Shown here piece after piece: positions 150 to 64,000 of a DNA stretch of 64,000 nucleotides; the stretch's first letter is position 1, and each line of letters opens with the position of its first letter. The stretch is from Octopus vulgaris (lineage: Eukaryota): positions 71,486,001-71,550,000 of the forward strand of contig OX597827.1 of assembly GCA_951406725.2 (NCBI GenBank), written 5' to 3'. The notes beneath the pieces are model-generated. The model saw nothing but the letters and a program-made list of their open reading frames with translations, was not told where the DNA came from and made no database searches. The position numbers and the translations under genes are program-made.

Positions 150-912
150 TATCGATGATGATCCCGAAAAATGAATGAGGACCACCGTCAAAGTACTTCA
201 GCCGTTGGAGTGGACTATCAGAATTGTGGCACATGAGAACATGCAATACAAGTCGTTGTACCGGGGGAGAAGTCAGTTCATGTCTGTAAAAGCAGGAAAA
301 CAATTCGATCCATACCAAGCGGTTATTTAACAAGGTTAAAAATCCTCAGAAATATGGTATGCTTTGGTTTTTCTTTGACAAGAAAATTGTCGACCATGAC
401 CAAAAGTTTCCCAGGAGAAATGACCGGCGTTTCTTTGCAGATTCTTATGGACTCCCCAGAATGATTCACTTTACTTTTCAAACAACTGTGATGGCTTTAA
501 GAATGGTGAGTAACGAAGGTCGTGTGATGCTGTCAAATATCTTTCCACAGTCTTCGATTAATGCTGCTGGATACATTGAAATGCTATGCTCTTGATGGAT
601 GAAGTACACAGTGAAAGGCTATATATGTTTCAGCAAGACTCATCATCTTCTCACAAGAACTGGTGTCAAACAATCCTTATCGTTATGCAACACCAAACAC
701 GTGACCTCAGATTTGAATCCTATGGACTATTACGTTTGGCGCGTTGTTTGAAGAGAGACTAATCGATATACTTATTGTTTTATAGCTTCACTGAAGGCTA
801 CCATCGCCGAGGTGATGCCCGAAATGAATATGGAACAATTGATGCAAGTATATCAACGATTCCGGTCCCGTAGTGAAGTTGCCATCGAAGCTGAAAGCGG
901 ATTGATAGAATT
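150..912 (+). pseudogene. Degenerate Tc1/mariner (maT/DD37D-like) transposase relic
   Basis: Frameshifted peptides TIRIVAHENMQYKSLYRGRSQFMS, WFFFDKK..DQKFPRRNDR, VMALRMVSNEGRVM, YMFQQDSSSSH (622-654), DLNPMDYYVW (710-739) and C-terminal EAESGLIE match IS630-Tc1-mariner catalytic motifs. Stops and deletions prevent counting the D-D spacing. Confidence 0.85.
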
Positions 913-1424
913 TTGTAAGGAAGATTATCGAGGAAATATTCACAGTTTTTTTTTTATTAAAATACATTTGATTTTTGTCTGATTAGAGTCATTTTATTGA
1001 ATTACAAAATATGTCCTCAAATACTTTTCGTTATTTCTATAAGTAACGGTAAGTAACCCAATAATACTCAGAGGCGACTTTTGCTAATTATACTAAATTG
1101 TTTTTGGATATATTGATCGGTGATTTTATTACAGGGACACAACTCGATAATAGAAAGACGTTCATATAATGCAAGGGAAGTAACTCATGACGCCCACATA
1201 TAATTTGCATCCTCATTGCATTACACTGGTATTCATTTTGGACATTACATCCTCTTTCCATGCTTTCTGAGAAATACTCTTGTATTAAATTAGAACTGTT
1301 TAGAGAAAAATCTATATATACACATGCGTACATAACTAAATTTCTAAATACTTCTATGCAATTTCATATATCAAACATTTTGGCTTTGATGATTCATACG
1401 TAATTTCTCCTGCTATTTCGTATA

Positions 1425-1682
1425 CAGTAATCCCTCGACATATCGCGGTTCACCTATCGCGGTTCACCTATCGCGGTTCACCTATCGCGGTTCACCTATC
1501 GCGGTTCACCTATCGCGGTTTATTATTTAAGCTTACGCCGATTCCTCTGTGGTGTTGTTTTGGATTTATAATAAAATAAATATAATAAAAAATATGCAAT
1601 ACAGTACTGCTTCTACTTCGCGGATTTTCACCTATCGCACTGGAGTTTTGAATGTAACCCGCGATAGTCGAGGGATTCTCTG
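1425..1682. mobile_element. Tigger/pogo-like MITE with internal 14-bp tandem array
   Basis: TA followed by CAGTAATCCCTCGAC at the left end; GTCGAGGGATTCTCTG (imperfect inverted copy) at the right end; (TATCGCGGTTCACC)x5.7 at 1441-1520. Confidence 0.75.
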
Positions 1683-1687
1683 AGACC

Positions 1688-1893
1688 CCATTCGGTTACG
1701 ACTGACCATGGGATTGCACCTAGAAAGTTGCCCTCCCAGGCACAAGTCCGGGCAAGGTTGTTTATGGAAGACCAGCAGTCGCCCATGCATGCCGGCCTCC
1801 CCTCTCCACGCCACCAGTGTTATCCAAGGGAAAGACAAAGGGCCGATACAGCTTGGCACCTGTGACGTCGCAACTCATTTCTACAGCTGAATC
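1688..1893 (-). mobile_element. RTE-5'UTR-like SINE/LINE fragment
   Basis: Reverse strand reads CAGCTGTAGAAATGAGTTGCGACGTCACAGGTGCCAAGCTGTATCGGCC...GTCGTAACCGAATGG. This resembles RTE/BovB-type 5' UTR sequence (from recall) and shares the GTCGTAACCGA tail of the SINEs at 16438 and 57104. Confidence 0.5.
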
Positions 1894-1894
1894 A

Positions 1895-1923
1895 CACCAA
1901 CATCGGTGGTGGACAAACATATA

Positions 1924-2021
<98 letters not shown>

Positions 2022-2180
2022 TATATACATATATACGACGGGCTTCTTTCAGTTTCCATCTACCAAATCCATTCACAAGGCTTTGGTCAGCAGAAGACAC
2101 TTGCCCAAGTTGTCCCGCACTGGGACTGAACCCGGAACCATGTAGTTGATAAGCAAGCTACTTTACCAGACAGTCACTCC
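1895..2180 (-). mobile_element. tRNA-derived SINE family B, 5' half
   Basis: Reverse complement of the intact copy at 54407-54817 (GGTTCCGGGTTCAGTCCCA...CTTGGGCAAGTGTCTTCT), with internal (CT)n(TA)n. Confidence 0.8.
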
Positions 2181-2185
2181 ATCGT

Positions 2186-2217
<32 letters not shown>

Positions 2218-2519
2218 TATTCAAAACAACCGCTTTAAATCCTATTATCAAATACTGAAATCCAGATTGTGTTTATGTTAACCGAAAGAAACCCGTTTTT
2301 TTTTATACGGACATTGCTAAGGCTGTTTAACCCCGATTACAGCGCTGATCAAGCAGAGTAAAATGAAAATGCATCCCGCCTAAGACTCCCATCTTGTTTT
2401 CAGACAATGTTGGACTACATTGTCCAATGTGCCTTTATAGTTTTCTTTTAATGTTAGGATGAAACTCTGTGAGTTGATCTCTCACCTTCTTTCACTTTTT
2501 CTTGTTTTTCACTGGCTTA

Positions 2520-3124
2520 TGTCGTATTCGACAAAAGGTTCTGTATCAGTGATTAGAAACTGAATCCCTGCATACACGGTCAGACATCACGAGCAAAGCA
2601 CAACAGTTTCACGTGATCGGTCTATTAACCGTCAAACATCACGAGTAAACCACAACAGTTTCACGTGATCGGTCTAGTAACCGACCAATCAGTGTGAAGC
2701 GATGATGGGAAAAGGTTTACTCGAACATTCTAGAATTTGACTTCCGGTCTCCTATAAAAACCGTTCGGCGCGCATTTTTAGGAGTCAGACGACTCAGGAA
2801 AGTGAGTAAGACAGATGGTGGAGATAGATGACCGGAACCTCCGTTGCCACGAATATAGCACAATTGTTTGCAGTTATGTTGGGCAAGCCGCTTGTTGCCG
2901 TATCAATAGTTTGTCGTAAACTCCAAGCAGTATCTCTCTCCCAGTGTGTAATTATTGCTTTTGTTATCTGTAAAAGGCCAACGCAGTTTGTCTTTATATG
3001 CGATAATAAAATCGTTTTAAAAAAATACAACCAGGTTTTGGATTAAGCCCCGATATCAAGAAGGTTGAAAAACTACTGCTGTAACCTCTTGGCCACGTAC
3101 CTTCACCTTTTCTTTGTAGCGACA
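2520..3124 (+). mobile_element. Candidate solo LTR
   Basis: TGTCG...CGACA inverted termini, two ~51-bp tandem repeats (~2578-2683), CCAAT at ~2685, TATAAAAA at ~2753 and AATAAA at ~3005, in LTR order. No target-site duplication was found. Confidence 0.4.
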
Positions 3125-3183
3125 CGAAATAGCATCAAATGTAAGCAACAGGCGTCATTAACAACACAAATGCAACGAGAATC

Positions 3184-45641: not shown

Positions 45642-46369
45642 TGTTTTAATTTAGGTATAAGACCAGAAATTTTGAAAGGAGGGGAAAAATCGATGGCATC
45701 AACACCAGTCCTTGATTGCTACTCATCTGATCGACCCCGGAGGGGATAGCATTCAATGTAGACCTGGGTGGGATTTGAACTCAGAAGGTGAAAAGACGGA
45801 CAGTTCACCGCCTTAATAATTCTTTCTAATTTTAGCACAAGACCAGCAATTCTGAGGGGAGGGGCAAGTCGATTACATCGACCCCAGTACATGACTGGTA
45901 CTCAGTTTTATCGACTGTGAAAGGATGAAATGCAAAGTTGACAGGTTTTCTAATTTAGGCACAAATGCCAGTAATTTTGAAGGAAGGGATTTAGATACCA
46001 TAGGACCTAGTGTTTGACTAGTACTTTATTTTATCGACCCCGGAGCGATAAAAGGCAAAGTTGACCTCGGCGGTATTTGAACTCGGAACGTACAGAGTCG
46101 TAGCTAAATACCGCAAGTCTGATGCTATAACGATTCTGCCAAGCCACCACCTTACCTTTTTATTTTTTTCAAGCGTAAGCAAAAGGCCTGAATTTTATTT
46201 TTTTTAGGAGTAGGAGATTAGCCATTGTTATCAACCTCCAGTACTTGACGGATAGTTTATTTCACTGACCCTTAGAAAGATGAAAGGTGGAGCCGGCCTC
46301 GGCAGGATTAGAAATTAGAACGAAAAGGATTTTATCCGATGCTCTAACGATTTTGTCAACCCGCCGCCC

Positions 46370-46427
<58 letters not shown>

Positions 46428-46774
46428 TAATAAAGTTTCTTGAAGCATGACCAGTAAACAAGTGCCACCTTAGTCTGCTGGTTGTGGACAGCTGACACTT
46501 TCCATCAAACCCAGCAAAATAAGCTGTGAGTTTACATGAAATGATAATAATAATAGTAATTGGTTGAAATTAGGGCACAAAGCCAGCAATTCCAGGGGAG
46601 GGGTTAAATCGATTACATCGACCCCAGTGTTTAACTGGTACTTATTTTATCGACTCCGAAAGGATGAAGGGCAAAGTCGACCTGGGCGGAATTTGAACCC
46701 AGAGCATAAAGACGGACAAAATGAGCTAAGCACTTTGTCCGGTCCGCTAACAGTTCTGCCAGTTCGTCGCCTTC

Positions 46775-46836
<62 letters not shown>

Positions 46837-47070
46837 CAATAATTATAATAATCCTTTCTACTGTAGGCATAATGTCTGAAATTTGATAGGAGGGGGTAAA
46901 TCGATCACATCGACCCCAGTACTTGACTGGTACTTAATTTTTTTCGACCGCGAAAGGATGAAAGGCAAAGTCGACCTCAGCAGAATTTGAACTCCGATCG
47001 TAAAAAAAAACGGACGAAATGCCGCTCAGCACTTTACCCGGTGTACTAACAATTCTGCCAGCTCGCCGCC

Positions 47071-47072
<2 letters not shown>
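45283..47072 (-). mobile_element. Nest of about 7 family A SINEs separated by (AAT)n/(GAT)n
   Basis: Copies at about 45283, 45645, 45820, 45945, 46170, 46565 and 46852, all in the same orientation and mostly bounded by AAT triplet runs. Confidence 0.8.
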
Positions 47073-47131
<59 letters not shown>

Positions 47132-47175
47132 TGATGATGATGATGATGACGATGATGATGAGGATAATAATAATA

Positions 47176-47244
<69 letters not shown>

Positions 47245-47669
47245 TTTGAGATGCAAATAATTGTAGATTTTTTTGGTGTGTTTTTTTTTCTGTAAATTTT
47301 CTTTGCTTGTTATTGGTCCTTTTTATTGAGTTTTTGTAAAATTCATTTCCAATTTTTTTTTTTTCCTTTTAAACTTTTTTTTCTTGGTTTTGATAGTAAT
47401 TTTTGATTTGGACAAAACAAAATAAAAACAAATAAAAGTGAATAAACAAATAAGCAAATAAATAATAGATTGCTGGATCTTGTTTTTTGTTGGTTTTTTT
47501 TTTTGGTTATCTCTCTCTCTTCTGAGAAGTTCAATGTATGTGTCTATGTTTATATGTGTACACGAGTTTGTGTATGTGTAACTAAGTATATACACAGACA
47601 TGTGTTTTGTATGCATAGGTGCATCTCAGGTGTGTGTGTATGTGTGTGTGTGTGTGCATATATATATGT

Positions 47670-47707
<38 letters not shown>

Positions 47708-47882
47708 ACATATATATGTATATACATATATATGGATATACATATATATATACACATATATATACATATGAATATACATGTACATACACACACGATATAC
47801 ACAGATAAACACATACAGTTACACAAATATGCATATACATATGTACGTATATATATATATGTATACATACATACATACATAC

Positions 47883-47938
<56 letters not shown>

Positions 47939-48159
47939 GCATGAATCTTTATGCACAAAATTCTACACACTTACATACCTACACACAAATATACATGCAT
48001 TTGTGCGTGTATATAAGTTTGTTTATTGTATCAGTGTAGGTGTGTGTTTGTGTGTATACATACATACATATATACACACACAACATAATCATATATGTGT
48101 ATATATGTATTTTGTGTCAACACACACACATATATATATGTATACACACACACATATAT

Positions 48160-48190
<31 letters not shown>

Positions 48191-48257
48191 TATATATGTA
48201 TAAATCTGAGTGTGTGAGAATGTATACACGGTTGTACACGCGTGTGCGTGTGTGCAC

Positions 48258-48316
<59 letters not shown>

Positions 48317-48576
48317 CGTACATGTTAGTCGATGAAACATTTATAGTATTAAGTATTAAATAAGTTTATAGTTTTGTTGTAAAGGGATTTAATGATATGT
48401 TAATCTAAATATGTATATTCTCTTAAATTTTAAATACAACATAAAAACTGTGGGTTTCCTGTTTAAAGTATCTTTCTCTTTGTCTATGCATGAATATACG
48501 AATGTATGTATGTGTATATATGATAGTATTATCTTTTCAAAACTCTACAATTCCCTTCCAGTGAGTTTCTTCCTAC

Positions 48577-48610
<34 letters not shown>

Positions 48611-48825
48611 TGGAAAAAAAAATGCATATATTTCGGCTTGGAGTTCCATTTGGATCCCGGAATTAATATCCTAAAATTAAACTTGATGAAATAACGGCTA
48701 ATATGGATTTTTTTCCTTGTTTTTCTTCATCCTCTTCTTTTCGTTTTTTATTATTATTATTATTTTTTTTTTTTATTATCATTTCCTTCCAGGGGCTATG
48801 GTTGTTCCAGCATTATTTCCTGAAA

Positions 48826-48900
48826 TCACACTTGGGTGTGTGTGTTTCCATCTGTAACGGTATCGAATCCCATACTTTGTGATGGTCCTGAGTATGTGTA
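48826..48900 (-). CDS. Terminal coding exon YTYSGPSQSMGFDTVTDGNTHTQV* (class I PDZ ligand; possibly AMPA-type glutamate receptor C-terminus)
   Basis: Acceptor TTGCTCTTGTTCTGTCTTACAG. The phase-0 frame ends T-Q-V-stop, the S/T-x-V PDZ motif, and is followed by AT-rich UTR-like sequence. The family assignment is from recollection of molluscan GluR tails and is unverified. Confidence 0.65.
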   Translation of the reverse strand, partial: YTYSGPSQSMGFDTVTDGNTHTQV

Positions 48901-49029
48901 CTGTAAGACAGAACAAGAGCAATGTGAGGATTTAAAGAGACATACAGCAACAAAAAAAAAAAAAAAAGACAAAGCAGCCGCGGCAACAGCAGCAGCAGCA
49001 GTAGCAACAAACAATAACAACAACAATGG

Positions 49030-49061
<32 letters not shown>

Positions 49062-49159
49062 ACATTACTATTTTATTTCAGAAAAATACGAAAACAAAAA
49101 AAAAAGAAAAAAAAAAAAACAAGCAAGAATTATTTCGGAGATTGTTTCTCTTCACGTAC

Positions 49160-49184
49160 CTTCAAATCAGATTCGTAACATATA
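49160..49184 (-). CDS. 25-nt candidate microexon (phase 0: YMLRI*; phase 2: xICYESDLK, in frame with the final exon)
   Basis: Long polypyrimidine tract TTGTTTGTTTTTGTTTCTTTTTTTAG, exon TATATGTTACGAATCTGATTTGAAG, donor AAG|GTACGT. Confidence 0.55.
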
Positions 49185-49506
49185 CTAAAAAAAGAAACAA
49201 AAACAAACAAACCCCTCCCCCCCCAAAAAAAAAAAAAAAACACAAACAAACCTTAAAGAACTCTCCTGAAAAAGAAATACAAAAAGCAAAATGCAAAAAT
49301 GCAAATGCTGTCACACATACACACACATACATACACGCATACGCGCATACGCACACACATACACATATAAACGCAAACTGTTTATACATGTATACATACA
49401 TACATTCACCAATTCCTCCATGCATACTTGCATACACGTATACAAACATGTGTACATAAATACACACATATATATATATGTGCATACACACATATATATA
49501 TATATA

Positions 49507-49597
<91 letters not shown>

Positions 49598-49608
49598 GTA
49601 ATGGTAAG

Positions 49609-49640
<32 letters not shown>

Positions 49641-49749
49641 GAATATGCATATATACACATACACACTCAAAGGGAAAAAATACAGAACAGATCCTTTCCC
49701 GTAATAGCATCCAGTCTCTCTCATCAGTTTTATGCCATACTTGCACAAG

Positions 49750-49835
<86 letters not shown>

Positions 49836-49990
49836 TTCGCGTTACGGTTGAACTCGAAGTACATACAGCTATAGCATATCGTAAGAATATTGAGAAAAAA
49901 AGTCGAAGGCTGCCTTCGGGCAAACTTCGATATTTTTTCTAAGGGCTTTTAATCCAATATTCAATATGCTACATTGTATTATTCATAGGT

Positions 49991-50045
49991 TTATCTGCTT
50001 CGAGCTCCCTCGTTAGAACGATTTATTCCATATCTCTCGAAGTTT
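49991..50045 (-). CDS. Candidate alternative terminal exon (phase 0: KLREIWNKSF*, stop at 50013; phase 2: xNFERYGINRSNEGARSR*)
   Basis: Very strong acceptor (~55-nt U-rich tract ending GTATCTTTTTTCAG), then unique sequence with a stop in every frame and no strong donor nearby. Confidence 0.5.
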
Positions 50046-50759
50046 CTGAAAAAAGATACAAAAAAAAACAACAAAAAACAAAAAAAACAACAACAAAAAC
50101 AAAAAGGACAATTCTTATAATAATATAAACACACACACATACACACACGCATTATCTGAGGAGGCTGTGGATAATTGAAAAGACATTGCAAATTTCACAT
50201 AAAATATATGGAATAATTTCCGTATACTTTGCATATAATAAGCCTCGAGTGCTTCTTTCACGAATTCATGAATTGTGAATTTCCTGTACATGCATCCATC
50301 CATCCATACAAACATACATATGTATGTATATGTGTGTATGTCATGCGTATGTGTGTGTGTATATATATATATGTGTGTATGTATATATAAACATACATGC
50401 ATACATGTATATTTTACATATATAAAACGCTGGATGACATGTCAAATAGTTTTCATTGGAAAGAAAACGCAGCGCTTGCGCTAAGAAAATTGGGTGAGGG
50501 TGAAAGGATGTATTATAAAGAGAAGTAGATTTGATAGATATATAGACTGATGATAAATTGAAGAGAGTGGGATGGATAGTGAGAGATAAAGACAGCGAGA
50601 GAGAGGGGGAAGGGAGGGATGGAATAATATTCAGCTGTTACCATGGAGCTGGGGTGTAAGTAAATGAACTAGAAGGTAAGAGGGTCAGAGCGGAGGAGCA
50701 TGACAGCACAAACCGAAAGAGAGAATTAGAGACGTGACGAGATAAAGTAACCAGATGAA

Positions 50760-51092
<333 letters not shown>

Positions 51093-51963
51093 TTATATAT
51101 TAATACACATATGTATGCGGATATAAACTTACATACATGTTTCTTCATTTACGTCCATACGTAGTGTATGTGCGTGTATATGGATGTAAGTCTAGTATAC
51201 CATTAAATCTAAAGTATGGAGTCATTTAATTATCAGAGTAGATACTTCAGAAAATATAAATCAGAAAAAAACCCGTCGTATACATACATTACATACACCC
51301 CCACCCACATGCATACACACACATACACACACATACATACATACACATATACATATACACACACGCACCCACCCACACATACATATATGTATATATGCGT
51401 TTGTCTGTGTGTGTTTGTGTTTGTTCCCCACCAGTGTTGGTTTGATTACGTCCCCGTAACAGCGGTTCGGCAAAAATTAACCGATAGCATAAGTAATGGG
51501 GTTGATTTGCTCGACCGAAACCCTTCAAGCCGGTGCCCCAGCATGGCCGCATCCAATGAATGAAACAAGTAAAAGATAGATGATAAGAGACTCGGTCACA
51601 AACGCAAACACGCTAAAATACACACAAAATATGTCTACGCGTATTGATTGATAGAAAAATCAATTAGGAAGATACAAGGTTTTATCGAGGGATTTTTCTG
51701 TCAAACATTTTCATCGACCAACTTCATATCGAAATGACTTCTAATCGAAGGTCTTTTCATCGATGGATTTTGTTTTTTTATCGAAACAGCTTTTCAGTAG
51801 CGTGAAGGGTTTTTTTTTTTTTTTACTGGACCGATTTTTCGTAAAATAATTTCATTGATTTCGTTGTGGCACGAGGCCAGTAAATTCGGGGGGTAAGTCA
51901 ATTACATCGACCCCCAGTGCTCAACTGGTACTTATTTTATCGACCCCGAAAGGATGAAAGGCA

Positions 51964-53069
51964 AAGTCAACCTCGGCGGAATTTGAACTCAGGACGTGAA
52001 AACGGACAAAATCGACCCCCAGTGCCCAACTGGTACTTATTTTATCGACCCCAAAAGGATGAAAGGCAAAGTCAACCTCGGCGGAATTTGAATTCAGAAC
52101 GTGGAGACGGACAAAATGCTGCCAAGCATTTTGCCTGGCGCGCAAACGATTCTGCCAGCTCGCCAACTTTCACTATAGAATAATTTTATTAAAATACAGA
52201 ATATTTTAAAAAGAAAATAAGAGCTACTACAGATCGTAGATATTTTTAATAGTTAGTCCTGAGGGTAGAACATGAATGACAACGGCCATCGCCTCAGTTG
52301 GCCACGTTCGTGAATTCGACTGGAAAATCTGATGACAGTGGTTTCTGATATCACCGCAAGGAGGAGGTGCCAACGAACAGTGGGTGGAGAAAATAGACGG
52401 GTATTTTGTCGAATAATTTCATCTGGTAATGATTTAAAATATAAAATAATTTAAAATATAAACTGGAAATAGACTTTCTATTCGAAAATTTAATTAAAAT
52501 CATTTAGCCTCGGCGGAATTTGAAGTCAACCTCGGCGGAATTTGAACTCAGGACGTGAAAACGGACAAAATCAACCCCCAGTGCCCAACTGGTACTTATT
52601 TTATCGACCCCGAAAAGATGAAAGGCAAAGTCAACCTCGGCGGAATTTGAATTCAGAACGTTAAGACGGACAAAATGCTGCCAAGCATTTTGCCTGGCGC
52701 GCAAACGATTCTGCCAGCTCGCCAACTTTTACCATAGAATAATTTTATTAAAATACAGAATATTTTAAAAAGAAAATAAGAGCTACTACAGATCGTAGAT
52801 ATTTTTAATAGTTAGTCCTGAGGGTAGAACAAGGATGACAACAACCATCGCCTCAGTTGGCCACGTTCGTGAATTCGACTGGAAAATCTGATGACTGTGG
52901 TTTCTGATATGACCGCAAGGAGGAGGTGCCAACGAACAGTGGGTGGAGAAAATAGACGGGTATTTTGTCGAATAATTTCATCTATTAATGATTTAAAATA
53001 TAAAATAATTTAAAATATAAACTGGAAATAGACTTTCTATTCGAAAATTTAATTAAAATCATTTAGCCT
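51964..53069 (+). repeat. Tandem duplication, period 559 bp
   Basis: 51964-52510 and 52523-53069 are near-identical (SINE A part plus ~350 bp of unique flank); the junction is CCT|CGGCGGAATTTGAA|GTCAACCTCGG. Confidence 0.92.
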
Positions 53070-53369
53070 ACTTTTAAATTTGTACAAAATAACCAATACG
53101 CCAATTAATATTCTACAGGAAAATGCATGCATCGGTCTCTATTGATGTTTGCTTTTAGAAATATACATGTATACACACACATATATACACAGCCACAATT
53201 ATGATAGCTATGCGTGTGTGTTTGTGTACATACATACATAGATATATATTACTATTGACCTCTTCCCAGATCCACATTTTCACACCTACACATACACACA
53301 CGCACACGTCAAGATCACCAGCCCTCTTCCGCATGCACATACCAACTCTCTTATACACACGCACGCGCA

Positions 53370-53637
53370 CCTTCGTTTTGGGATCACCTCCACTTTGTTA
53401 TCTCCCCTTCTCCCTAGCTCTCCTGTGTGACCCTTCTGTCCGGCCTTCGCCATGATAGATTGCTAGCCACTACACATTCTTTATTTTCTCTCCTTGTTTC
53501 TTTCTGTGTTCCTTTCTAAGGAAGAGCGTAGGCTCGAAACGTTAAAGACTTTTTCATTTCCCGAGCGTTATACTAATACATCTGTTTGTTGTCTACACCA
53601 CGTGTCTTTGTCTTTTGTTTTTTTTTTTGTGAATTCT

Positions 53638-53640
<3 letters not shown>
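53370..53640 (+). mobile_element. Penelope-like pseudo-LTR fragment with degenerate minimal hammerhead motif
   Basis: CTTT-CTAAGGAA-GAGC GTAG GCTC-GAAA-CG-TT-AAAG at 53512-53548 has the type I minimal hammerhead layout of Penelope-like elements; the fragment ends in (TA)n. Confidence 0.55.
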
Positions 53641-53689
<49 letters not shown>

Positions 53690-53711
53690 TGTTCTTATGT
53701 CATGTTATAAT

Positions 53712-54000
53712 TGGCACTCCGTTGATTATGACGACAACTGTCCCCGTTGGTTCGACCAACGGAATTGCCTACTCGTGAAATTAACGTGTAAATGACTGTA
53801 TATTTTATAAAGACGTATATCTTTAACGCAGTTCTGAGGGAGATTCAGTGTGACACAGGCTGTAACAAGGCTGGTCCTTTGAATTATAGGTACAACTCTC
53901 ATTTTTACCAGCTGAGTGGACTGGAGCAACGTGAAATGAAAGGTCTTGCTCAAAGACGCAAAGCGCCGCATGATGGAATCGAACCCTCGATCGAAAGCCG
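53712..54000 (-). mobile_element. CORE-type SINE family D, old
   Basis: Reverse complement of the 16438 copy (ACTCTCATTTTTACCAGCTGAGTGGACTGGAGCAACGTGAAATGAAAGGTCTTGCTCAA). Confidence 0.8.
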
Positions 54001-54406
54001 AATATCCTAACTTCGCAACTTTGGTACCGCAAACGTAATTAGAACGTCGCAGGGAAAGAATCACACGAAAGAGACTTCAAGTCGAGTCAAATAACAGGTG
54101 ACGCAGGAGAGTTCAAGAACAGGACGGTTGAATAATAATTACAGCCTCTGTTGGCAACGGTTGGGAATCCGACCGATAAGTGTAATGATGGCTGATTCTG
54201 ATAGGACCCTTTGAAAAAAATGCCTGAGGACTCTACTCTTACAACGGCCCCAGAAATTGTGGACAGAGAAAATGGATGGATGGATTTTATATTGAAAATT
54301 ATTCTAATCCAAAAATTGTTACAATCTCTAACATTTTTATTTTATATTAAAAAAGAATATTTTATATTTAAAATTGTTCTGCAGATAAAATTATTCTATA
54401 CATATA

Positions 54407-54817
54407 GGCGCGGGAGTGGCTGTGTGGTAAGTAGCTTGCTTACCAACCACATGGTTCCGGGTTCAGTCCCACTGCGTGGCACCTTGGGCAAGTGTCTTCT
54501 ACTATAGCCTCGGGCTGACCAAAGCCTTGTGAGTGGATTTGGTAGATGGAAACTGAAAGAAGCCCGTCGTATATATGTATATATATATATATGTGCGTGT
54601 ATGTGTTTGTGTGTCTGTATTTGTCCCTCTAGCATTGCTTGACAACCGATGCTGGTGTGTTTACGTCCCCGTCACTTAGCGGTTCGGCAAAAGAGACCGA
54701 TAGAATAAGTACTGGGCTTACAAAGAATAAGTCCCGGGGTCGATTTGCTCGACTAAAGGCGGTGCTCCAGCATGGCCGCAGTCAACTGACTGAAACAAGT
54801 AAAAGAGTAAAAGAGTA
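54407..54817 (+). mobile_element. SINE family B, intact young copy
   Basis: tRNA-like A-box (TGGCTGTGTGG) and B-box (GGTTCAGTCCC), CORE-like CACCTTGGGCAAGTGTCTT, internal microsatellite, tail GGCGGTGCTCCAGCATGGCCGCAGTC and (AGTAAAAG)n end. Confidence 0.92.
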
Positions 54818-55030
54818 ATGGTATATTTATAAAAATGATGTCATTCCGAAGCTTGAAAAAATTTTGGTCGATGAAAATTTATTCGAAAAACAGTCGTTTC
54901 GATGTTAAGTTATTTCGATGAAATCACTTCATGAAGAGTCGTTTGATAAAGTTGAATCACGATTAGATGACATCTGACAAACAGTTTAAGGAAAAAATAC
55001 ACACATATATGTATATATCCATATCCATAT

Positions 55031-55087
<57 letters not shown>

Positions 55088-55091
55088 AATA

Positions 55092-55143
55092 CAGTAGTAC
55101 CTCGGTTTTCGAACAACTCTGATCGCGAATATATGGTGCTTTG

Positions 55144-55174
<31 letters not shown>

Positions 55175-55302
55175 CGCGGTTTACTTGCGATCAGAGGCGT
55201 TCGTAAACCGAGGTACTACTGGATTAAATAAATATGAAAAAGACAGGAGATAAAGTACGTTTTATTCGTGATTAGAGTTGTTCGAAACCCGAGGTTCTAC
55301 TG
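55092..55302. mobile_element. Tigger/pogo-like MITE with two alternative right TIRs
   Basis: Left TA-CAGTAGTACCTCGGTTTTCGAACAACTCTGATCGCGAA; inverted copies end at 55221 and 55302. Confidence 0.8.
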
Positions 55303-55304
55303 TG

Positions 55305-55371
<67 letters not shown>

Positions 55372-55490
55372 TTATTTAAAATTGAGGATAAAATCTTTAT
55401 AAGAAATTATCAGTAGTTAGCGTGAAAAACCTCATAAGAGAAAAAATCCGTGAATTTTTCCACTTTGAAAATATTTATTTATATTATATA

Positions 55491-55692
55491 GAGGGTACTA
55501 CTATTCATAGATACCGCACGCTAGGAGGGACCCTTGCGGACAAAACTACTAAAATAAACAAATTGTACCGAATGGAAAACTTCAAAGCAAGTCATTTAAA
55601 AAAAGAATTTAGTTACATATCACCTTTATTTTAGTAGTTTTGACCGCAAGGGTCCCTCCTAGCGTGCGGTATCTATGAATAGTAGTACCCTC
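55491..55692. mobile_element. Foldback MITE with ~68-bp TIRs in TA context (Sola- or Academ-like ends)
   Basis: GAGGGTACTACTATTCATAGATACCGCACGCTAGGAGGGACCCTTGCGG...AAAATAAA (55491-55558) is inverted at 55625-55692 with one mismatch, flanked by TATA on both sides. Confidence 0.85.
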
Positions 55693-55743
<51 letters not shown>

Positions 55744-56335
55744 GATAGATAGATAGATAGAGAGATTAGATAGATAGATAGACAGCTGTATATATCTATA
55801 TTTACACATACACACACTCTATCTCAGGCACACACGCATACGCATACACACCCACACGCACGCACATACGCACACACACACACACGCACGCACGCATAGG
55901 TATCCCACGTTACAGTCGCAGCAGATCACGAAATTTCCCGATTACGGTAATTGTAAAGTATAAGCACTAGTTTCGAGATACGGTCTGAAATTTCGTCCTA
56001 ACAGAAACTCGGATAAATGTTAGTTTAAAAGCTTTCGTCTTTTCTAAAAGGCCGTTTCATGGTATTTTAGATGGGACGAAAAATTATAGTTAATAATATG
56101 TAAAGCTATAATCACGATATATATCTTTACATATACATGTATGTATGTATGCATATATGCGTGCGTTAATGTATATTTGTGTGTGCGTGCATGAATGCGT
56201 GATGCGCACGTGTACGCACGTGCCTGCATGTGTGTATGCAAGTATTTAAGTATGCGTCACTCTAAACATTTATGGTGTGTGAGTTGGAATTTTTCACTAT
56301 TTGTGTGTGTAGCTAATTTACTTGCTTACAATGCA

Positions 56336-56337
56336 TG

Positions 56338-56404
<67 letters not shown>

Positions 56405-56415
56405 GTCTGTCTTTG

Positions 56416-56496
<81 letters not shown>

Positions 56497-56517
56497 GCCT
56501 GCCTGCCTGTCTGCCTG

Positions 56518-56580
<63 letters not shown>

Positions 56581-56600
56581 GTCTGTCTATCCATCCATCC
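56336..56600. repeat. Compound tetranucleotide microsatellite
   Basis: Blocks of TATC, TGTC and TGCC. Confidence 0.95.
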
Positions 56601-57103
56601 ATCTCTTTGTATGTCTGACTATCTATCTATATGTACACACACACACATATATGCACACAGTCAACAAGAACAGTATAATTAACATCAAAAATACCTCCAC
56701 CATCTCCATCGCTATCAGCCCCAATATCAAAACCAACATCACCGCCACTACCAACCTATCAACACTTGCATAACCAATTGGCAATAACAATAATTGTATC
56801 AGCATAATACTAATGACTGTAGCTACATATGTTGTATGTCAACACACCGCCGGTGTGTGTGGGTAGAGTGTTGAAAGTGCAGGGATGGAAGTGCCCATAA
56901 ACCTGGTAACTTTTCAACTAATTGTAATCATATACTTCCTCTCACCTCACTCCATCACTCTTTTGTCTGCTCTTTTCCATTCTTACATCCTTAAGAATAC
57001 GACAACAACTTTCTGCTTTCACAAAACGCTTCTTCCTTGAGAATACAGATGAGAATAAGGAAATACGGAAACTCTTCCAACCCCATTTACATTTACTGTG
57101 GAA

Positions 57104-57482
57104 GCACTCCGTCGGTTACGACGACGAGGGTTCCGGTTGATCGGAATCAACGGAACAGCCTGCTCGTAAAATTAACGTGTAAGTGGCTGAGCACTCCACA
57201 GACACGTGTACCTTTAACGTAGTTCTCGGAGATATTCAGCGTGACACAGAGAGTGACAAGGCCGGCCCTTTGAAATACAGGTACAAGAGAAACAGGAAGT
57301 AAGAGTGAGAGAAAGTTGTGGTGAAAGAGTACAGCAGGGATCACCACCATCCCCTGCCGGAGATTCGTGGAGCTTTTAGGTGTTTTCGCTCAATAAACAC
57401 TCACAACGCCCGGTCTGGGAATCGAAACCGCGATCCTATGACCGTGAGTCCGCTGCCCTAACCACTGGGCCATTGCGCCTCC
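57104..57482 (-). mobile_element. tRNA-derived SINE family C, full length
   Basis: Reverse strand: GGAGGCGCAATGGCCCAGTGGTTAGGGCAGCGGACTC...GGTTTCGATTCCC head, and GTCGTCGTAACCGACGGAGTGC tail shared with family D. Confidence 0.9.
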
Positions 57483-57779
57483 ACTGCTGATAACAACCCT
57501 AATAATGAATGTTTCATATAAATTACAAACGGATTTTGGAGTTTACAATCAGTCAATTCCTGCACTGAGCAGTTCAAACAGATGATGCACCATAAATATA
57601 AAAATTTTAGGCGAATTCTTCACCCCTCAAGCAGATGTTGATGATGATGGGCTATTAGATAGAAGAAAGGGTCCCTCATGCTCCAGTAACTCTCATCTCT
57701 AGTTTCCCTATCACCTCTCACACAGTGATCAACAGATCAACATGTTTTGTGGTAAGAATGCATCCTATATAATTATATC

Positions 57780-57994
57780 TCCTTTCACTTATTTTACTTA
57801 CTGCAGTCATTGGATTGCGGCCATGCTGGGGCACCATCAGGAAGGGTTTAGTCGAACGAATCAACCTCAGTATTAATTCTTTTTTATACCTGGTATTTAT
57901 GCTATCGGTCTTTGGCCGAACCGCTAATTTTGGAGAGGTAAACAAACCAACACTTTTGTCAAGTGGTGGTAGTGGACAAAGACCCCCGCCTACA

Positions 57995-58049
<55 letters not shown>

Positions 58050-58051
58050 AG

Positions 58052-58088
<37 letters not shown>

Positions 58089-58284
58089 AAAAAAGGAGAT
58101 GTCGAGCACGAGTGGTGATATATAAAAGGAAATGAAGAAAATGCTGACAAATAATTGAAGTAATTTAAGTAATTTAATTAGGTGGAAGTTCTTTTTACCG
58201 GTTGCGCGCAACCGGTAAAAAGAACTTCCACCTAATTAAATTACTTAAATTACTTCAATTATTTGTCAGCATTTTCTTCATTTC

Positions 58285-58340
<56 letters not shown>

Positions 58341-58480
58341 CGACGGAGTCCTTTCACTTTCCGGCCTTCCAAAGGTTTTGGTCGATTGGAGGCTATAGCA
58401 AAAGACACTTGCCCAAGATGCCATACGGTGAGTCTGAACCCGGAACCATGTAGTTAGGAAGCAAACTTCTTACCACACAG

Positions 58481-58485
<5 letters not shown>
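57780..58485 (-). mobile_element. Old SINE family B hosting a palindromic insert in its microsatellite
   Basis: Tail at 57780-57970 and head at 58340-58485. Confidence 0.75.
58118..58295. repeat. 178-bp perfect palindrome without spacer
   Basis: 89-bp arms are exact reverse complements, centred on TTGCG|CGCAA (58206/58207). Confidence 0.95.
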
Positions 58486-58527
<42 letters not shown>

Positions 58528-58875
58528 TACACACACACATATATATACACACATAACTTGGGGCGGACAGAAACACCGAAACGCATTTCATTAGTTTGCA
58601 TTAATTATGGATGTAATTTGCATGGAAACAATGATTGGAGCTGGAATTCATTACAAACATACAGACACACACACACACTTACACATACAGACATAGACAT
58701 GCACATGCACAAATACATACACATGCACATATATATACACACACATACACACTTGCACACGCACAATCACAAGCACGTGTATATTACATGCATGTACGTA
58801 TGTGCGTATATACGTGTTTATTCATATATGGCTACACACACACACACATATATATATATGCATATATATCATACA

Positions 58876-58936
<61 letters not shown>

Positions 58937-58966
58937 TCATATATACATACCAATACTCAAACATTC

Positions 58967-58997
<31 letters not shown>

Positions 58998-59078
58998 GGA
59001 ATTTATGAATACATTACCACATGCATGTATAAAGTGTATGTGTATACATGTGTGTATATATATGTATATATATATATG

Positions 59079-59140
<62 letters not shown>

Positions 59141-59822
59141 TATACACACACGCACACACAAATCCCTATACCCATACACACATGTATATAAGCCTTTATA
59201 TATATATATATACATACACATACATTTAAACATATCTATGTATACACATACATATATATATATATAAATATGCATCTCTCAGTCTCTCTGTTAATATATA
59301 TATACATATACATACATACATACACATACATATATATATATATATGTATGTGTATATATATATTTATAATTCTCTCTCTCATTCTCTCTGTTACTATATA
59401 CATACATACACACACACACATATATATATGTATATATATATGTATGTATGTATGTATTTATGTATATATGTATGTATGTATGTATGTATGTAAACGTGTA
59501 GCCAGCTTGAAGCCTGCTCACATAAATCCAAAATGGCGCATACTTGAATGCATCCAACCAATCACATGCCTGAGCACGTGTATGTATATAACCACTAATT
59601 GAAGCTAAAAGTCATATTCGTGTAGAGACACATAAGCATGAGTATGCATAATTGAATTTCAGCTTTTAATTATTGGAACTACGCAATCGTGCGCACGCGC
59701 ACACACATATATGTATATATATATATATATGTATATATATGTATGTATACAACTATGTGTGTGACTTATATGTACGAACACTCTCACATGTGTTTGTTTG
59801 TGTGTCTGTGTGTGCGTGTGTC

Positions 59823-59860
<38 letters not shown>

Positions 59861-60206
59861 CTATGCTTACACGTATATACATTTATACAGATATATACGT
59901 ATATATATATATACATAAACGCACACACATATATATGCGTATGCGCGCACGCATATATATATATATATATATATACAAAATATATATTTAATATGCATAA
60001 ATACACACACGCACGCACAAATACAGACACACACACACACATAACTGCAAACACTAGCAGAGGGCTAATAGCTTGTCTAGTTTCATTTTCATTAAAAAAA
60101 TGTTAATTAGAACATACTAAATTTAGCTTTAATTTGTTTTGTACATTTTGCTCCTTTTTTTTTTTTACACTTTTTTATGTGGTTATATTTTTATACGTAT
60201 GCACAC

Positions 60207-60512
60207 GCCGCGTGCGACTTAATGGTTAGAGTATTCAGCTCGCGATCGTAAGGCCGTAGGTTCGATTCGCGGCGGAGCAAGTCACTTTATTTCACGTTGT
60301 TCCAATCCACCCAGCTGGCAAAAATGAGCCGTACTCGTATTTCAAAAGCCAGCATTGTCACGTTCTATGTCACGTCGAATTTACCTAAGAACTCCGTTAA
60401 GGATACGCGCGTATCTGGAATACACGGCCACTCGCACGTTAATTTCATAAGCAGGCTGTTCCGTTGATAATATCAAGTGGAACACTCGTCATCGTCTTAA
60501 CCGACGGAGTGC
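60207..60512 (+). mobile_element. CORE-type SINE family D
   Basis: GCGACTTAATGGTTAGAGTATTCAGCTCGCGATCGTAAGG...GGTTCGATTC head and AACCGACGGAGTGC tail. Confidence 0.8.
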
Positions 60513-61157
60513 TAGTAATGTGCAGGTACTTACCCAAATGTGCTTATTATAATGTATGTATTAATGTATTAGATTAAACTTCTGAGAGATTTCAACCTCC
60601 TCAATGCTGAATAGCTCGAGGGTTACCTTCTCTCAGGTATATCATTCCAAGAGCAGAGGCAGACTGATATCCGACTGACCATACGAAAATGCTATTCATG
60701 GAACAAATAGTGCTCTATCTAACTAAGGAAAAATTGCTCTCTACGTCTGTTTCTCAAATACAACGCTCATACATAATGCTATGTTGACACCAATGTGTTT
60801 CTCGGGTATTTGTAGAAATAACAATCCATGCCTTGAGAACAACTGCATGCTTGGGGTCTACTAGAAACACCCGACTCCTTTCTAACTTAACTCACATAAA
60901 GATAATTGGAAAGATATTCAGAAAGAGGTCCCGGAACAAAACTGGTCAGCCAGTCTCCCTAAACAGGATGCTGGCATAAAGCTACAGTATATTCCTTTCT
61001 CTTCTAGGCACAAGGTCCGAAATTTTTGGGGAGAGGGACAGTCGATTAGATCGACACCAGTATGCAACTGGTACTTAATTTATCGACCCCGAAAGGATGA
61101 AAGGCACAGTCGACCTCGGCAGAATTTGAACTCAGAACGTAACTTATGACAATCATG

Positions 61158-61342
61158 CAGCACTCCGCAACCTTTTTCCACTTGCGGCACACCTATATTC
61201 TTTTCAGAAATCAGTGGCACACCTGAACTAAAGCTATAACTAAAAGTATAAGGGAAAGATTATATTCAGGTTACACTGCGGCACACCTAGAATCGTTTTG
61301 TGGCACACCAGTATGCCGTGGCATACCGGTTGAGGAACATTG
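61158..61342. mobile_element. hAT (Charlie-like) MITE
   Basis: Decayed TIRs CAGCACTCCGCAACC and GGTTGAGGAACATTG, with repeated subterminal GCGGCACAC motifs. Confidence 0.65.
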
Positions 61343-61401
61343 CTCCAGAGAGAATGTCAAACCGACAGAAATATGAAAATTCTAATGAGATGTTGCCAGA
61401 G

Positions 61402-61808
61402 CGGCTAACTGGCTTCCGTGCCGGTGGCACGTAAAAAGAACCATTTGAGTGTGATCGTTACCAGCGCCGCCTTACTGGCCCTTTTGCCGGTGGCATGTGG
61501 AAAAACATTCGAGCGAGGTCGTTGCCAGTGCTGCTGGACTGGCTCCAGTGCAGGTCGCACGTAAAAAGCACAGTTTGAGTGCGGCCGTTGCCAGTACCGC
61601 CTGACTGGCCCTCGTGCCGGTGGCACGTAAAAGCACCAACTACACTCTCGGAGTGGTTGGCGTTAGGAAGGGCATCCAGCTGCAGAAACCTTGCCAGATC
61701 AAAATTGGAGCCCGGTGCAGCCATCTGGTTCGCCAGTCCTCAATCAAATCGTCCAACCCATGCTAGCATGGAAAGCGGACGTTAAACGATGATGATGATG
61801 ATGATGAC
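61402..61808 (+). mobile_element. RTE-related retroelement 3' end with ~65-bp internal tandem units and (GAT)n tail
   Basis: Four imperfect units containing GTGGCACGTAAAAAG, then GGCGTTAGGAAGGGCATCCAGCTG, ending GGACGTTAAAC(GAT)n. Confidence 0.65.
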
Positions 61809-61809
61809 T

Positions 61810-62775
61810 ACAAAGCTTTCAAATGATGTAAATAGGCCATTAAAGAATTGTGGAGAACCCTATCTCAAACGAGCAGCGAATGAGATTGAAACTGAACTCA
61901 AAAACTTTTATGAAAAGGCGAGCGTAGCAAAAGAAGGCAGATTTGTAAGAAACGTAAAGATAAACCATAACGTATTCTATAGATTTTCAAAAGAGTCTGC
62001 TTAGTACTAGATAAGGCCACTGTTCGAAGAAAATGGCTCACTCTCTGCGGACGCCCAAAAGGATAAGTGAAATGCTGAATGTCCAATACAAAGTGTTTTC
62101 ATATCTCTATTGGGACACTTGCAAATAAATATGGCTGACAAGTTCTACATAGAGGAATGGCAAATATCGATTATATCGAAATATTGAAAACTGATGCAAT
62201 ATCAGCCATTGATGAAATGAGCTTAAACTCAGCCACAGGCTCCGATCGTTTCGCGGCAATCCTGCTAAAATTTGCAAACACATCAAAGCAAGACCACTAT
62301 AGGTCCTCTTCCAAAGTTTTCTTGCAAGTGGTAATCTTCCCAGAAAGTTGAAGGAGGGAATATGTCCTATCCATAAAGGAAGAAACAGAGTAGGAGCTAA
62401 AAACTGAAACAAGTGATGAACGTAAACGTGATATGTCTCGATTTTGCAAAAGCATTCGATGAGGTTGATCACGGAATGTCACAAACTATGAGAACTCAGT
62501 ACAGTTGAAAAGCTATATGACTTCTTAAAAGGCTGTAGTAGCCAATGGAGTCCTCTCTAAGAAGACATTAATAGCGAGTGAAGTGCCCCAGGAAACTGTC
62601 ATGGGGTCACCTGCCATCAGGCTAGCAGTAATACAGGTAGTCACTCTTACTAGGGGTGTTGACGATATAAAGTACTGCAAGCAGTCAAGAATCCTCTCGA
62701 TGCTAATTTTCTACAGAAAAATTTAGATGCCATACATAAATAGGCTTAATACAACAACATGCAATTTTATGCAGA
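61810..62775 (+). pseudogene. Degraded CR1/L2/Jockey-group LINE reverse transcriptase
   Basis: Ordered remnants NVKINHNVFYRF, SATGSDRFAAILLK, PIHKG, VNVICLDFAKAFDEVDHG, SEVPQETVMG (from SGVPQGTVLG), VDDIKV (from ADDTK) and LQKNLDAIHK*A*YNNMQF. Confidence 0.85.
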
Positions 62776-63060
62776 AACTATACTCTCGTATAGAGTAAGG
62801 TACAGGTCTACATTGAGGTTTGTAAGGTACAGGTCTTTTCTATTCAAGGCACAAGGCCCGAAATCTTGGGGAATGGGACCAGTCGATTAGATCGATTCGG
62901 GTACACCACTGGTACTTAATTTATCGACCCCGAAAGGATGAAAGGCAAAATCGACCTTGGCGGAATTTGAACTCAGAACGTACTGGCAGACGAAATACTT
63001 ATTTCTTTACTACCCACAAGGGGCTAGACACAGAGGGGACAAATAAGGACAGACAAACGG

Positions 63061-63229
63061 TCTTAAAAGGTTGTAGTAGCCAATGGAGTCCTCTCCAAGG
63101 AGACATTAATAGCGAGTGGAGTGACCCAGGAAACTATCTTAGGGTCACCTGCCATCAGGCTATCAGTAATACAAGAAGTCACCCTTACTAGGGTGTTGAC
63201 GATATAAAGTACTACAAGCAGTCAAGAAT
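63061..63229 (+). repeat. Local duplicate of RT segment 62523-62692
   Basis: TCTTAAAAGG...GCAGTCAAGAAT is repeated with shared deletions and joined to a truncated SINE A (62836-63060). Confidence 0.88.
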
Positions 63230-63468
63230 ACAAACCTCAATCACAGCGAGAAACTCAGCCGAGGACTGCAATATCAAAAACTCCTTTATTCACCAAAAGC
63301 CAACAACACGACAATGGGCATTGAAAAGGTAATGATAACGATGGTGCTCCAGCATGGCCATAGCCTTTGAGCTGATATAAAAGAATATAAACATACACAC
63401 ACACACAAGCATCAACTTTGCTTTAGCTGAAATGTATTTGTTAAATTGTTAATGATATTCACTTCCGA

Positions 63469-64000
63469 AGGCGGCGAGCTGGCAGAAACGTTAGCACGCC
63501 GGGCGAAATGCTTAGCGGTATTTTGTCTGCCGTTACGTTCTGAGTTCAAATTCCGCCGAGGTCGACGTCGCCTTTCATCCTTTCGGGGTCGATAAATTAA
63601 GTACCAGTTACGCACTGGGGTCGATATAATCGACTTAATCCGTTTGTCTGTCGTTGTTTGTCCTCTTTGTGTTTAGCACCTTGTGGGTAGTAAAGAAATA
63701 GGTATTTTGTCTTCCGCTACGTTCTGAGTTCAAATTCCGCCGAGGTCGACTTTGCTGTTCATCCTTTCGGGGTCGATTAAATAAGTACCAGTTATGCACT
63801 GGGATAGATATAATCGACTTGATCCGTTTGTCTGTCCTTGTTTGTCCCCTCTATGTTTAGTCCCGTGTGGGTAGTAAAGAAATAGGTATTTCGTCTGCCG
63901 CTACGTTCTGAGTTCAAATTCTGCCGAGATCGACTTTGCTTTTCATCCTTTCAGGGTCGATTAAATAAGTACCAATGATGCACTGGGATAGATATAATCG
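63469..64000 (+). mobile_element. SINE family A, at least trimeric, runs off the window end
   Basis: One head (GGCGGCGAGCTGGCAGAAACGTTAGC) followed by three ~180-bp body units. Confidence 0.9.

Follow-up and report, generated by a model that had tools for sequence, protein, structure and literature searches.

Acceptor-like sites in the last intron of the AMPA-type glutamate receptor gene of Octopus vulgaris and a proposed switch of its PDZ ligand

The receptor gene and its exon map

The window analyzed here is a stretch of 64,000 nucleotides of the Octopus vulgaris genome (G000:C14:71486001-71550000), and continued window coordinates, which run on past 64000, are used for positions beyond its end. 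The gene on its minus strand is that of the O. vulgaris AMPA-type glutamate receptor CAI9733262.1; the AMPA type had been guessed in the original prediction, and the exon map, the Pfam architecture and the structure matches bore it out. The ligand-gated channel family profile PF00060 matched the minus strand 47-52 kb past the window end, and the exon encoding M4, used as a query, retrieved O. vulgaris CAI9733262.1 at 100%. By tblastn, this protein and O. bimaculoides XP_014776221.1 were placed on 15 exons, with the final one at 48900-48829. PF01094, PF10613 and PF00060 exceeded their cut-offs in both proteins, corresponding to an amino-terminal domain (ATD), a ligand-binding domain and an M1-M4 channel. 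When solved structures were compared, the best 60 of 101 matches were named GluA1-4 or plain "Glutamate receptor" (top E value of 4e-237), and GluA1-4 were the closest vertebrate relatives as judged by these structure matches rather than by a tree. A FAT-like cadherin, which had been offered as an alternative source of the tail, was discarded, since the records that carry this tail are glutamate receptors. The features of the gene that are needed below were the following (a slash marks the exon-intron boundary):

48826..48900, minus strand: coding stretch of the last exon as annotated, with 24 codons, a TGA stop and a T-H-T-Q-V end; 100% match to the ends of CAI9733262.1 and XP_014776221.1, covered by contigs of 4/4 runs
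48901..48930, minus strand: true 3' splice site closing the last intron, with pyrimidine tract and CAG; score of 3.1 bits, a scan of the 78 nt upstream showing no second AG
48901..64000, minus strand: window portion of the last intron (whole intron 28.4 kb; 28,439 nt), from the tblastn exon map and boundaries
C14:71563447-71563340, minus strand: 108-nt cassette exon, upstream beyond the window, donor ACG/GTAAGG; tblastn exon map
C14:71578818-71578681, minus strand: M4 exon, upstream beyond the window, donor AAG/GTAAGC; tblastn exon map
Upstream of the M4 exon, reaching C14 ~71667500, minus strand: 12 more exons; tblastn exon map
46000..48825, minus strand: probable long 3' UTR, suggested by contig pieces at 48632-48716, 47521-47623, 47251-47344 and 46000-46359, which may or may not form a single transcript

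The two exons that may precede the last one, M4 and the 108-nt cassette, lie 44 and 28 kb from 48900, respectively, and each of them has a phase-0 end. The phase assumed in the original prediction was thus correct, and a phase-2 upstream intron was excluded. Low-stringency tblastn with the C-terminal regions of 9 homologs yielded no additional or duplicated exon between 48,000 and 112,000, the open reading frames listed for the window and a 200-kb flank gave nothing informative, and the first exons of the receptor gene were not found in the 200 kb examined upstream.

Some features of the gene model were recorded on the side. The donor of the M3 exon was apparently of the GC type (AAG/GCAAGT; continued window coordinate 111582, C14:71597582), and that of the next exon apparently G/GTTAGT. 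The record CAI9733262.1 (743 aa) begins within the N-terminal domain and lacks the genome exons at continued window coordinates 181526 and 149905, indicating that the O. vulgaris gene model is truncated at its 5' end. The candidate 3' UTR would span at least 2.8 kb, with its contig cover interrupted by microsatellites and a high-copy repeat.

Conserved tail, recorded splicing and transcript-type contigs

Class I PDZ ligands are C-terminal S/T-x-V/I/L motifs. The T-Q-V at the real C-terminus of the octopus receptor fits this pattern and is conserved, and its role as a ligand is predicted from the motif. THTQV had been put forward as one of three possible ends; it turned out to be the real end of the gene, encoded by the annotated last exon and conserved in relatives. 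It was found in 17/17 cephalopod-type proteins with an M4 end (16 with the cassette and 1 without it), the squid-type cluster having 15 of its 20 members among the matches listed. In selected records from other molluscs, 34 of 37 ended in HTQV or HTEV and five skipped the cassette; two of the three exceptions looked truncated or fused, and the third was the Patella X2 isoform, with a VQLV end. HTQV or HTEV also closed 122 of the 143 fetched proteins longer than 400 aa that held the M4 motif, and the THTQV end was shared by arthropod relatives as well.

The splicing on record concerned the 108-nt cassette (36 residues), which was either included or skipped in squid, scallop and abalone records, with THTQV kept in both cases. 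Long and short records measured 924 and 888 aa in squid, 910 and 874 in Mizuhopecten, 911 and 875 in Pecten, and 914 and 880 in Haliotis, skipping being seen in Mizuhopecten, Pecten and three Haliotis records. For Octopus, the long form was the only one among the fetched records. The M4 exon is followed by 60 residues when the cassette is present and by 24 when it is absent, and the cassette carries several S/T close to basic residues.

Two further variations were observed at this end of the protein. The Patella vulgata record XP_050415806.1 (P0146), annotated as isoform X2, has a tail ending in VNRVQLV instead of THTQV, and was the sole mollusc record among those examined with an altered end that was not obviously truncated or fused. 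Arthropod orthologs (P0087, P0089, P0092, P0096, P0098 and P0179) carry short in-frame inserts at the junction preceding the last exon.

Assembled contigs, which carry no tissue labels, were compared for 4 (3 studies) of the 24 runs listed, all guessed to be RNA. In all four, the contigs with the last exon matched the genome up to 48901 and then continued for 358-3131 further letters that lie off the window. An upstream exon ending in AAG, be it a microexon or M4, would extend the match to 48902, while the ACG end of the cassette extends it to 48901 only; the alignment ends and exon boundaries thus fit a direct join of cassette and last exon. Bins from 49015 to 50019 had zero contig cover in 4/4 runs, a count made on assembled contigs, which drop rare variants, and the cover of bins 50020-50220 came from an intronic piece (50155-50282, depth of 4.5) in one of the four runs.

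Acceptor-like sites, candidate microexons and a dispersed repeat

Acceptor-like AGs precede 50045, 49184 and 48900 on the minus strand and, read in phase 0, give KLREIWNKSF*, YMLRI* and YTYSGPSQSMGFDTVTDGNTHTQV*, as had been noted from the sequence. The sites were ranked with a crude acceptor score trained on the 15 acceptors of the gene itself, one of which had been entered at 100898 instead of 100900, an offset of 2 nt; donors were scored with generic frequencies. In the 28,439-nt last intron, only 50045 (12.7 bits), 49265 (11.5 bits) and 49184 (10.3 bits) reached 10.3 bits, while the true acceptor at 48900 scored 3.1 bits. Of the three strong acceptors originally claimed, 50045 and 49184 were therefore confirmed as strong, but 48900 was modest and the stronger 49265 had been missed. 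By this crude score the true acceptor is weaker than its neighbors, so that something must make the spliceosome ignore the latter, a point against taking them for decoys.

The closeness of these sites to the last exon partly reflects local composition. Runs of at least 8 T were 2.7 times denser in the 1.2 kb before real acceptors than gene-wide (1.03 vs. 0.38 per kb), and five of the nine unannotated strong acceptor sites in the gene were within 1.2 kb of a real acceptor. Three of these five were 50045, 49265 and 49184, so that two more strong sites lay near a real acceptor; together with the denser T runs, this means that clustering alone says little. A class II-like C-terminus is likewise cheap, since with a loosely defined pattern 8 of the 25 acceptor-like sites in the last intron had such an end when read in phase 0.

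The preferred reading is that 48900-48826 is the annotated last exon, that the acceptors at 49184 and 50045 are likely unused decoys, and that T-Q-V is likely kept in all main forms (probability of roughly 0.72). The spliceosome links the M4 and last exons either directly or through the 108-nt cassette, both forms being on record in squid, scallops and abalone, and the choice would alter the length of the spacer between membrane and PDZ ligand but not the class of the ligand. Decoys may arise wherever T-rich intron ends meet an AG, one of these AGs probably having been supplied by a MITE-like insertion. The claim of three alternative 3' exons was not supported: 50045 lies in a dispersed repeat, YMLRI was present in 0/245 proteins, and the splicing on record is that of a 36-residue cassette with an unchanged PDZ end. 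The proposed PDZ-ligand switch is thus unproven and probably not real.

Several observations count against the decoy reading. The acceptor-donor pair at 49184 is rare by chance and single-copy, and it sits at a junction where arthropods have in-frame inserts and Patella X2 a changed tail; in addition, the 14-nt and 25-nt pieces described below are in frame and stop-free together, and three TGC motifs accompany 49265. Support for decoys is also bounded by its sources, contigs and gene models that drop rare isoforms, with 4 of 24 runs covered. The pieces concerned were the following:

49160..49184, minus strand: 25-nt candidate microexon with TAG acceptor and AAG/GTACGT donor, single-copy, which in phase 0 would give a YMLRI end; from site scores
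49252..49265, minus strand: 14-nt candidate microexon with CAG acceptor (11.5 bits) and weak AAG/GTTTGT donor (0.6 bits), 67-nt spacer to the next acceptor; from site scores and in-silico translation
49286..49303, minus strand: three TGC motifs, 21-38 nt ahead of the acceptor at 49265, similar to the UGC signature known from neural microexons of the eMIC/SRRM4 type; 0-2 TGC at the 15 annotated acceptors, 0 at 49184 and 50045

An alternative is that the 25-nt piece does serve as a microexon, probably a neuron-specific one, which on its own in phase 0 would end the protein in Y-M-L-R-I and replace the class I PDZ ligand by one of class II. The piece and its donor are indeed present as originally described, with TGA followed by 7 nt before the donor, so that an isoform with its stop 7 nt before the last junction would escape nonsense-mediated decay (NMD). 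Phase 0 was confirmed upstream, both splice sites are strong, and the genome search found no other copies. The two strands of 264 kb held 24 strong acceptors outside the annotation, and of these 49184 alone had a donor as strong no more than 30 nt away, where ~0.1 such pairs would be expected by chance, at thresholds set post hoc at the observed values and in a scan that selects such cases. Vertebrate GluA2/3 rely on an -SVKI end for GRIP/PICK1, according to the portion of PMC6502786 consulted. Against this, the length of the piece breaks the frame, class II-like ends are frequent by chance, as stated above, and the contig ends of 4/4 runs fit a direct cassette join. Seven candidate peptides, YMLRI among them, were present in 0/245 fetched proteins, and none appeared among 82 matches from a search for shorter proteins with alternative tails; metagenome contigs gave 0 exact matches to the 25-nt piece. 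The site has no TGC, and its AG-free zone of 28 nt was the shortest of 18 sites compared. P0240 is an unnamed protein whose reading frame crosses the intron and enters a squid-type tail; when it served as a query, 0/227 pattern matches were confirmed, and by eye its intron-derived part had no likeness to the octopus intron in that frame. A 25-nt microexon retains some probability because assemblies and annotation lose rare forms, yet we regard it as unlikely.

A wider version, in which the octopus gained a neuron-specific microexon module where the 25-nt piece alone would give the class II-like L-R-I and addition of the 14-nt piece would restore frame and T-Q-V, appears quite unlikely.

The two pieces might instead be co-included, the 25-nt piece then being read in phase 2 (xICYESDLK) and the protein gaining 13 residues while keeping THTQV. 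In-silico translation showed that 14 + 25 = 39 nt are in frame, free of stops and read into the normal tail, a fit that has a chance of 1 in 3. The three TGC ahead of 49265 resemble the signature given in the available part of PMC8797185, where eMIC-dependent microexons combine UGC motifs close to their 3' splice site with an extended AG-free zone; the latter measured 40 nt at 49265, vs. 32-78 nt at annotated acceptors. Short in-frame inserts in arthropod records occur at the same junction. The 14-nt donor, however, is so weak that ~11% of sites have one as good within 30 nt, the 67-nt spacer holds a single A before its AG, and the combined peptide was in 0/245 proteins; the pair is very unlikely.

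The remaining site, 50045, belongs to a repeat that adjoins a T-rich tract:

49819..50052, no strand assigned: degenerate palindromic MITE-like repeat, whose left arm gives the AG and the KLREIWNKSF* read (right arm ~49873-49819); at least 40 other genome matches
50053..50105, minus strand: T-rich low-complexity tract adjoining the repeat, absent before the AG in the other repeat copies compared

At least 40 other genome matches of the repeat, on many contigs and at 70-97% identity, were found. Of 14 copies compared, 10 had AG/AAACTTC, and the peptide reads KLRETWNKSF* and KLQEIWNKSF* came from two copies. Long inverted arms were found in 4/12 copies: in L027 (203-501) they measured 83 nt at 84%, and L029, L032 and L035 were palindromic over 221-259 nt. 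These arms, together with the decayed right arm of the window copy, mark the repeat as MITE-like, in the manner of MITE-type non-autonomous DNA transposons. The window copy is flanked by a microsatellite and the T-tract, and its AG resembles a strong acceptor because of the T-rich tract beside it. As for the family as a whole, it measures ~230-290 bp with arms of roughly 85 nt and occupies at least 41 genomic places; a 22-nt inverted repeat with a 4-nt loop lies at 49893-49940, in the middle of the window copy.

Exonization of this repeat as an alternative terminal exon ending in KLREIWNKSF* would remove the PDZ ligand, as a K-S-F end fits neither class I nor class II. Its acceptor score is the strongest in the intron, phase 0 fits, and ATTAAA at 49953 is a possible poly(A) signal; nevertheless, the AG and the peptide are the repeat's own sequence, there is no good donor, and the peptide was in 0/245 proteins, so that exonization is highly improbable and the 50045 "exon" likely an unused part of a genome-wide repeat. 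Scarcely credible is a frameshift of the last exon by the 14-nt piece alone into a 33-residue tail without PDZ ligand: its frame is open to a stop shortly past the normal one and Patella has a recorded isoform with a different end (P0146, XP_050415806.1), but the donor is weak and the peptide motif was in 0/245 proteins.

Public records already cover the gene, the tail and the splicing of the cassette, so the finding matters little as it stands. Were the 25-nt exon real, it would mean a splicing-controlled change of scaffold partner in a receptor whose tail barely varies across protostomes, and through it the trafficking of the receptor during synaptic plasticity in the octopus could be approached directly. 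The parts of the literature consulted (including PMC11201320, PMC9282427 and PMC8212780) held no report on tail splicing of the octopus gene; 10.64898/2026.09.05.749416, as far as its available text goes, includes O. bimaculoides, and its supplements may list exons of the receptor gene.

Comparison with known systems

The two octopus records, CAI9733262.1 from O. vulgaris and XP_014776221.1 from O. bimaculoides, have an identical last exon and cassette, and both are without the 14-nt, 25-nt and 50045 pieces. On sequence similarity, CAI9733262.1 is the ortholog of squid SqGluR (Doryteuthis opalescens CAB65182.1, 924 aa, and CAD58975.1, 888 aa), with which it shares 87% identity and the M4-cassette-tail layout; past M4, the 36-residue cassette is what sets the two squid records apart, and they share the THTQV end. 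SqGluR is expressed in the brain and the giant fibre lobe, according to the section of 10.1101/2024.03.16.585344 that was available. The HTQV/HTEV C-terminus is shared by Lymnaea stagnalis P26591 and by the protostome GluR1 group (scallops, abalone, limpets, crustaceans and insects), where no fetched record has a YMLRI-like end and the arthropod junction variants are in-frame inserts. The repeat at 49819..50052 is, like MITE-type transposons, short, dispersed and present in many copies, with long terminal inverted arms.

In vertebrate GluA2 and GluA4, splicing between long and short tails changes the PDZ ligand, whereas the mollusc splicing on record leaves the ligand unchanged. Vertebrate GluA2/3 end in -SVKI and bind GRIP and PICK1, as described in the portion of PMC6502786 consulted. 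If the microexon module were true, the octopus would have converged on the GluA2 tail switch, with its ancient class I T-Q-V ligand replaced; the likeness of its receptor to vertebrate GluA2 depends on use of the 25-nt exon.
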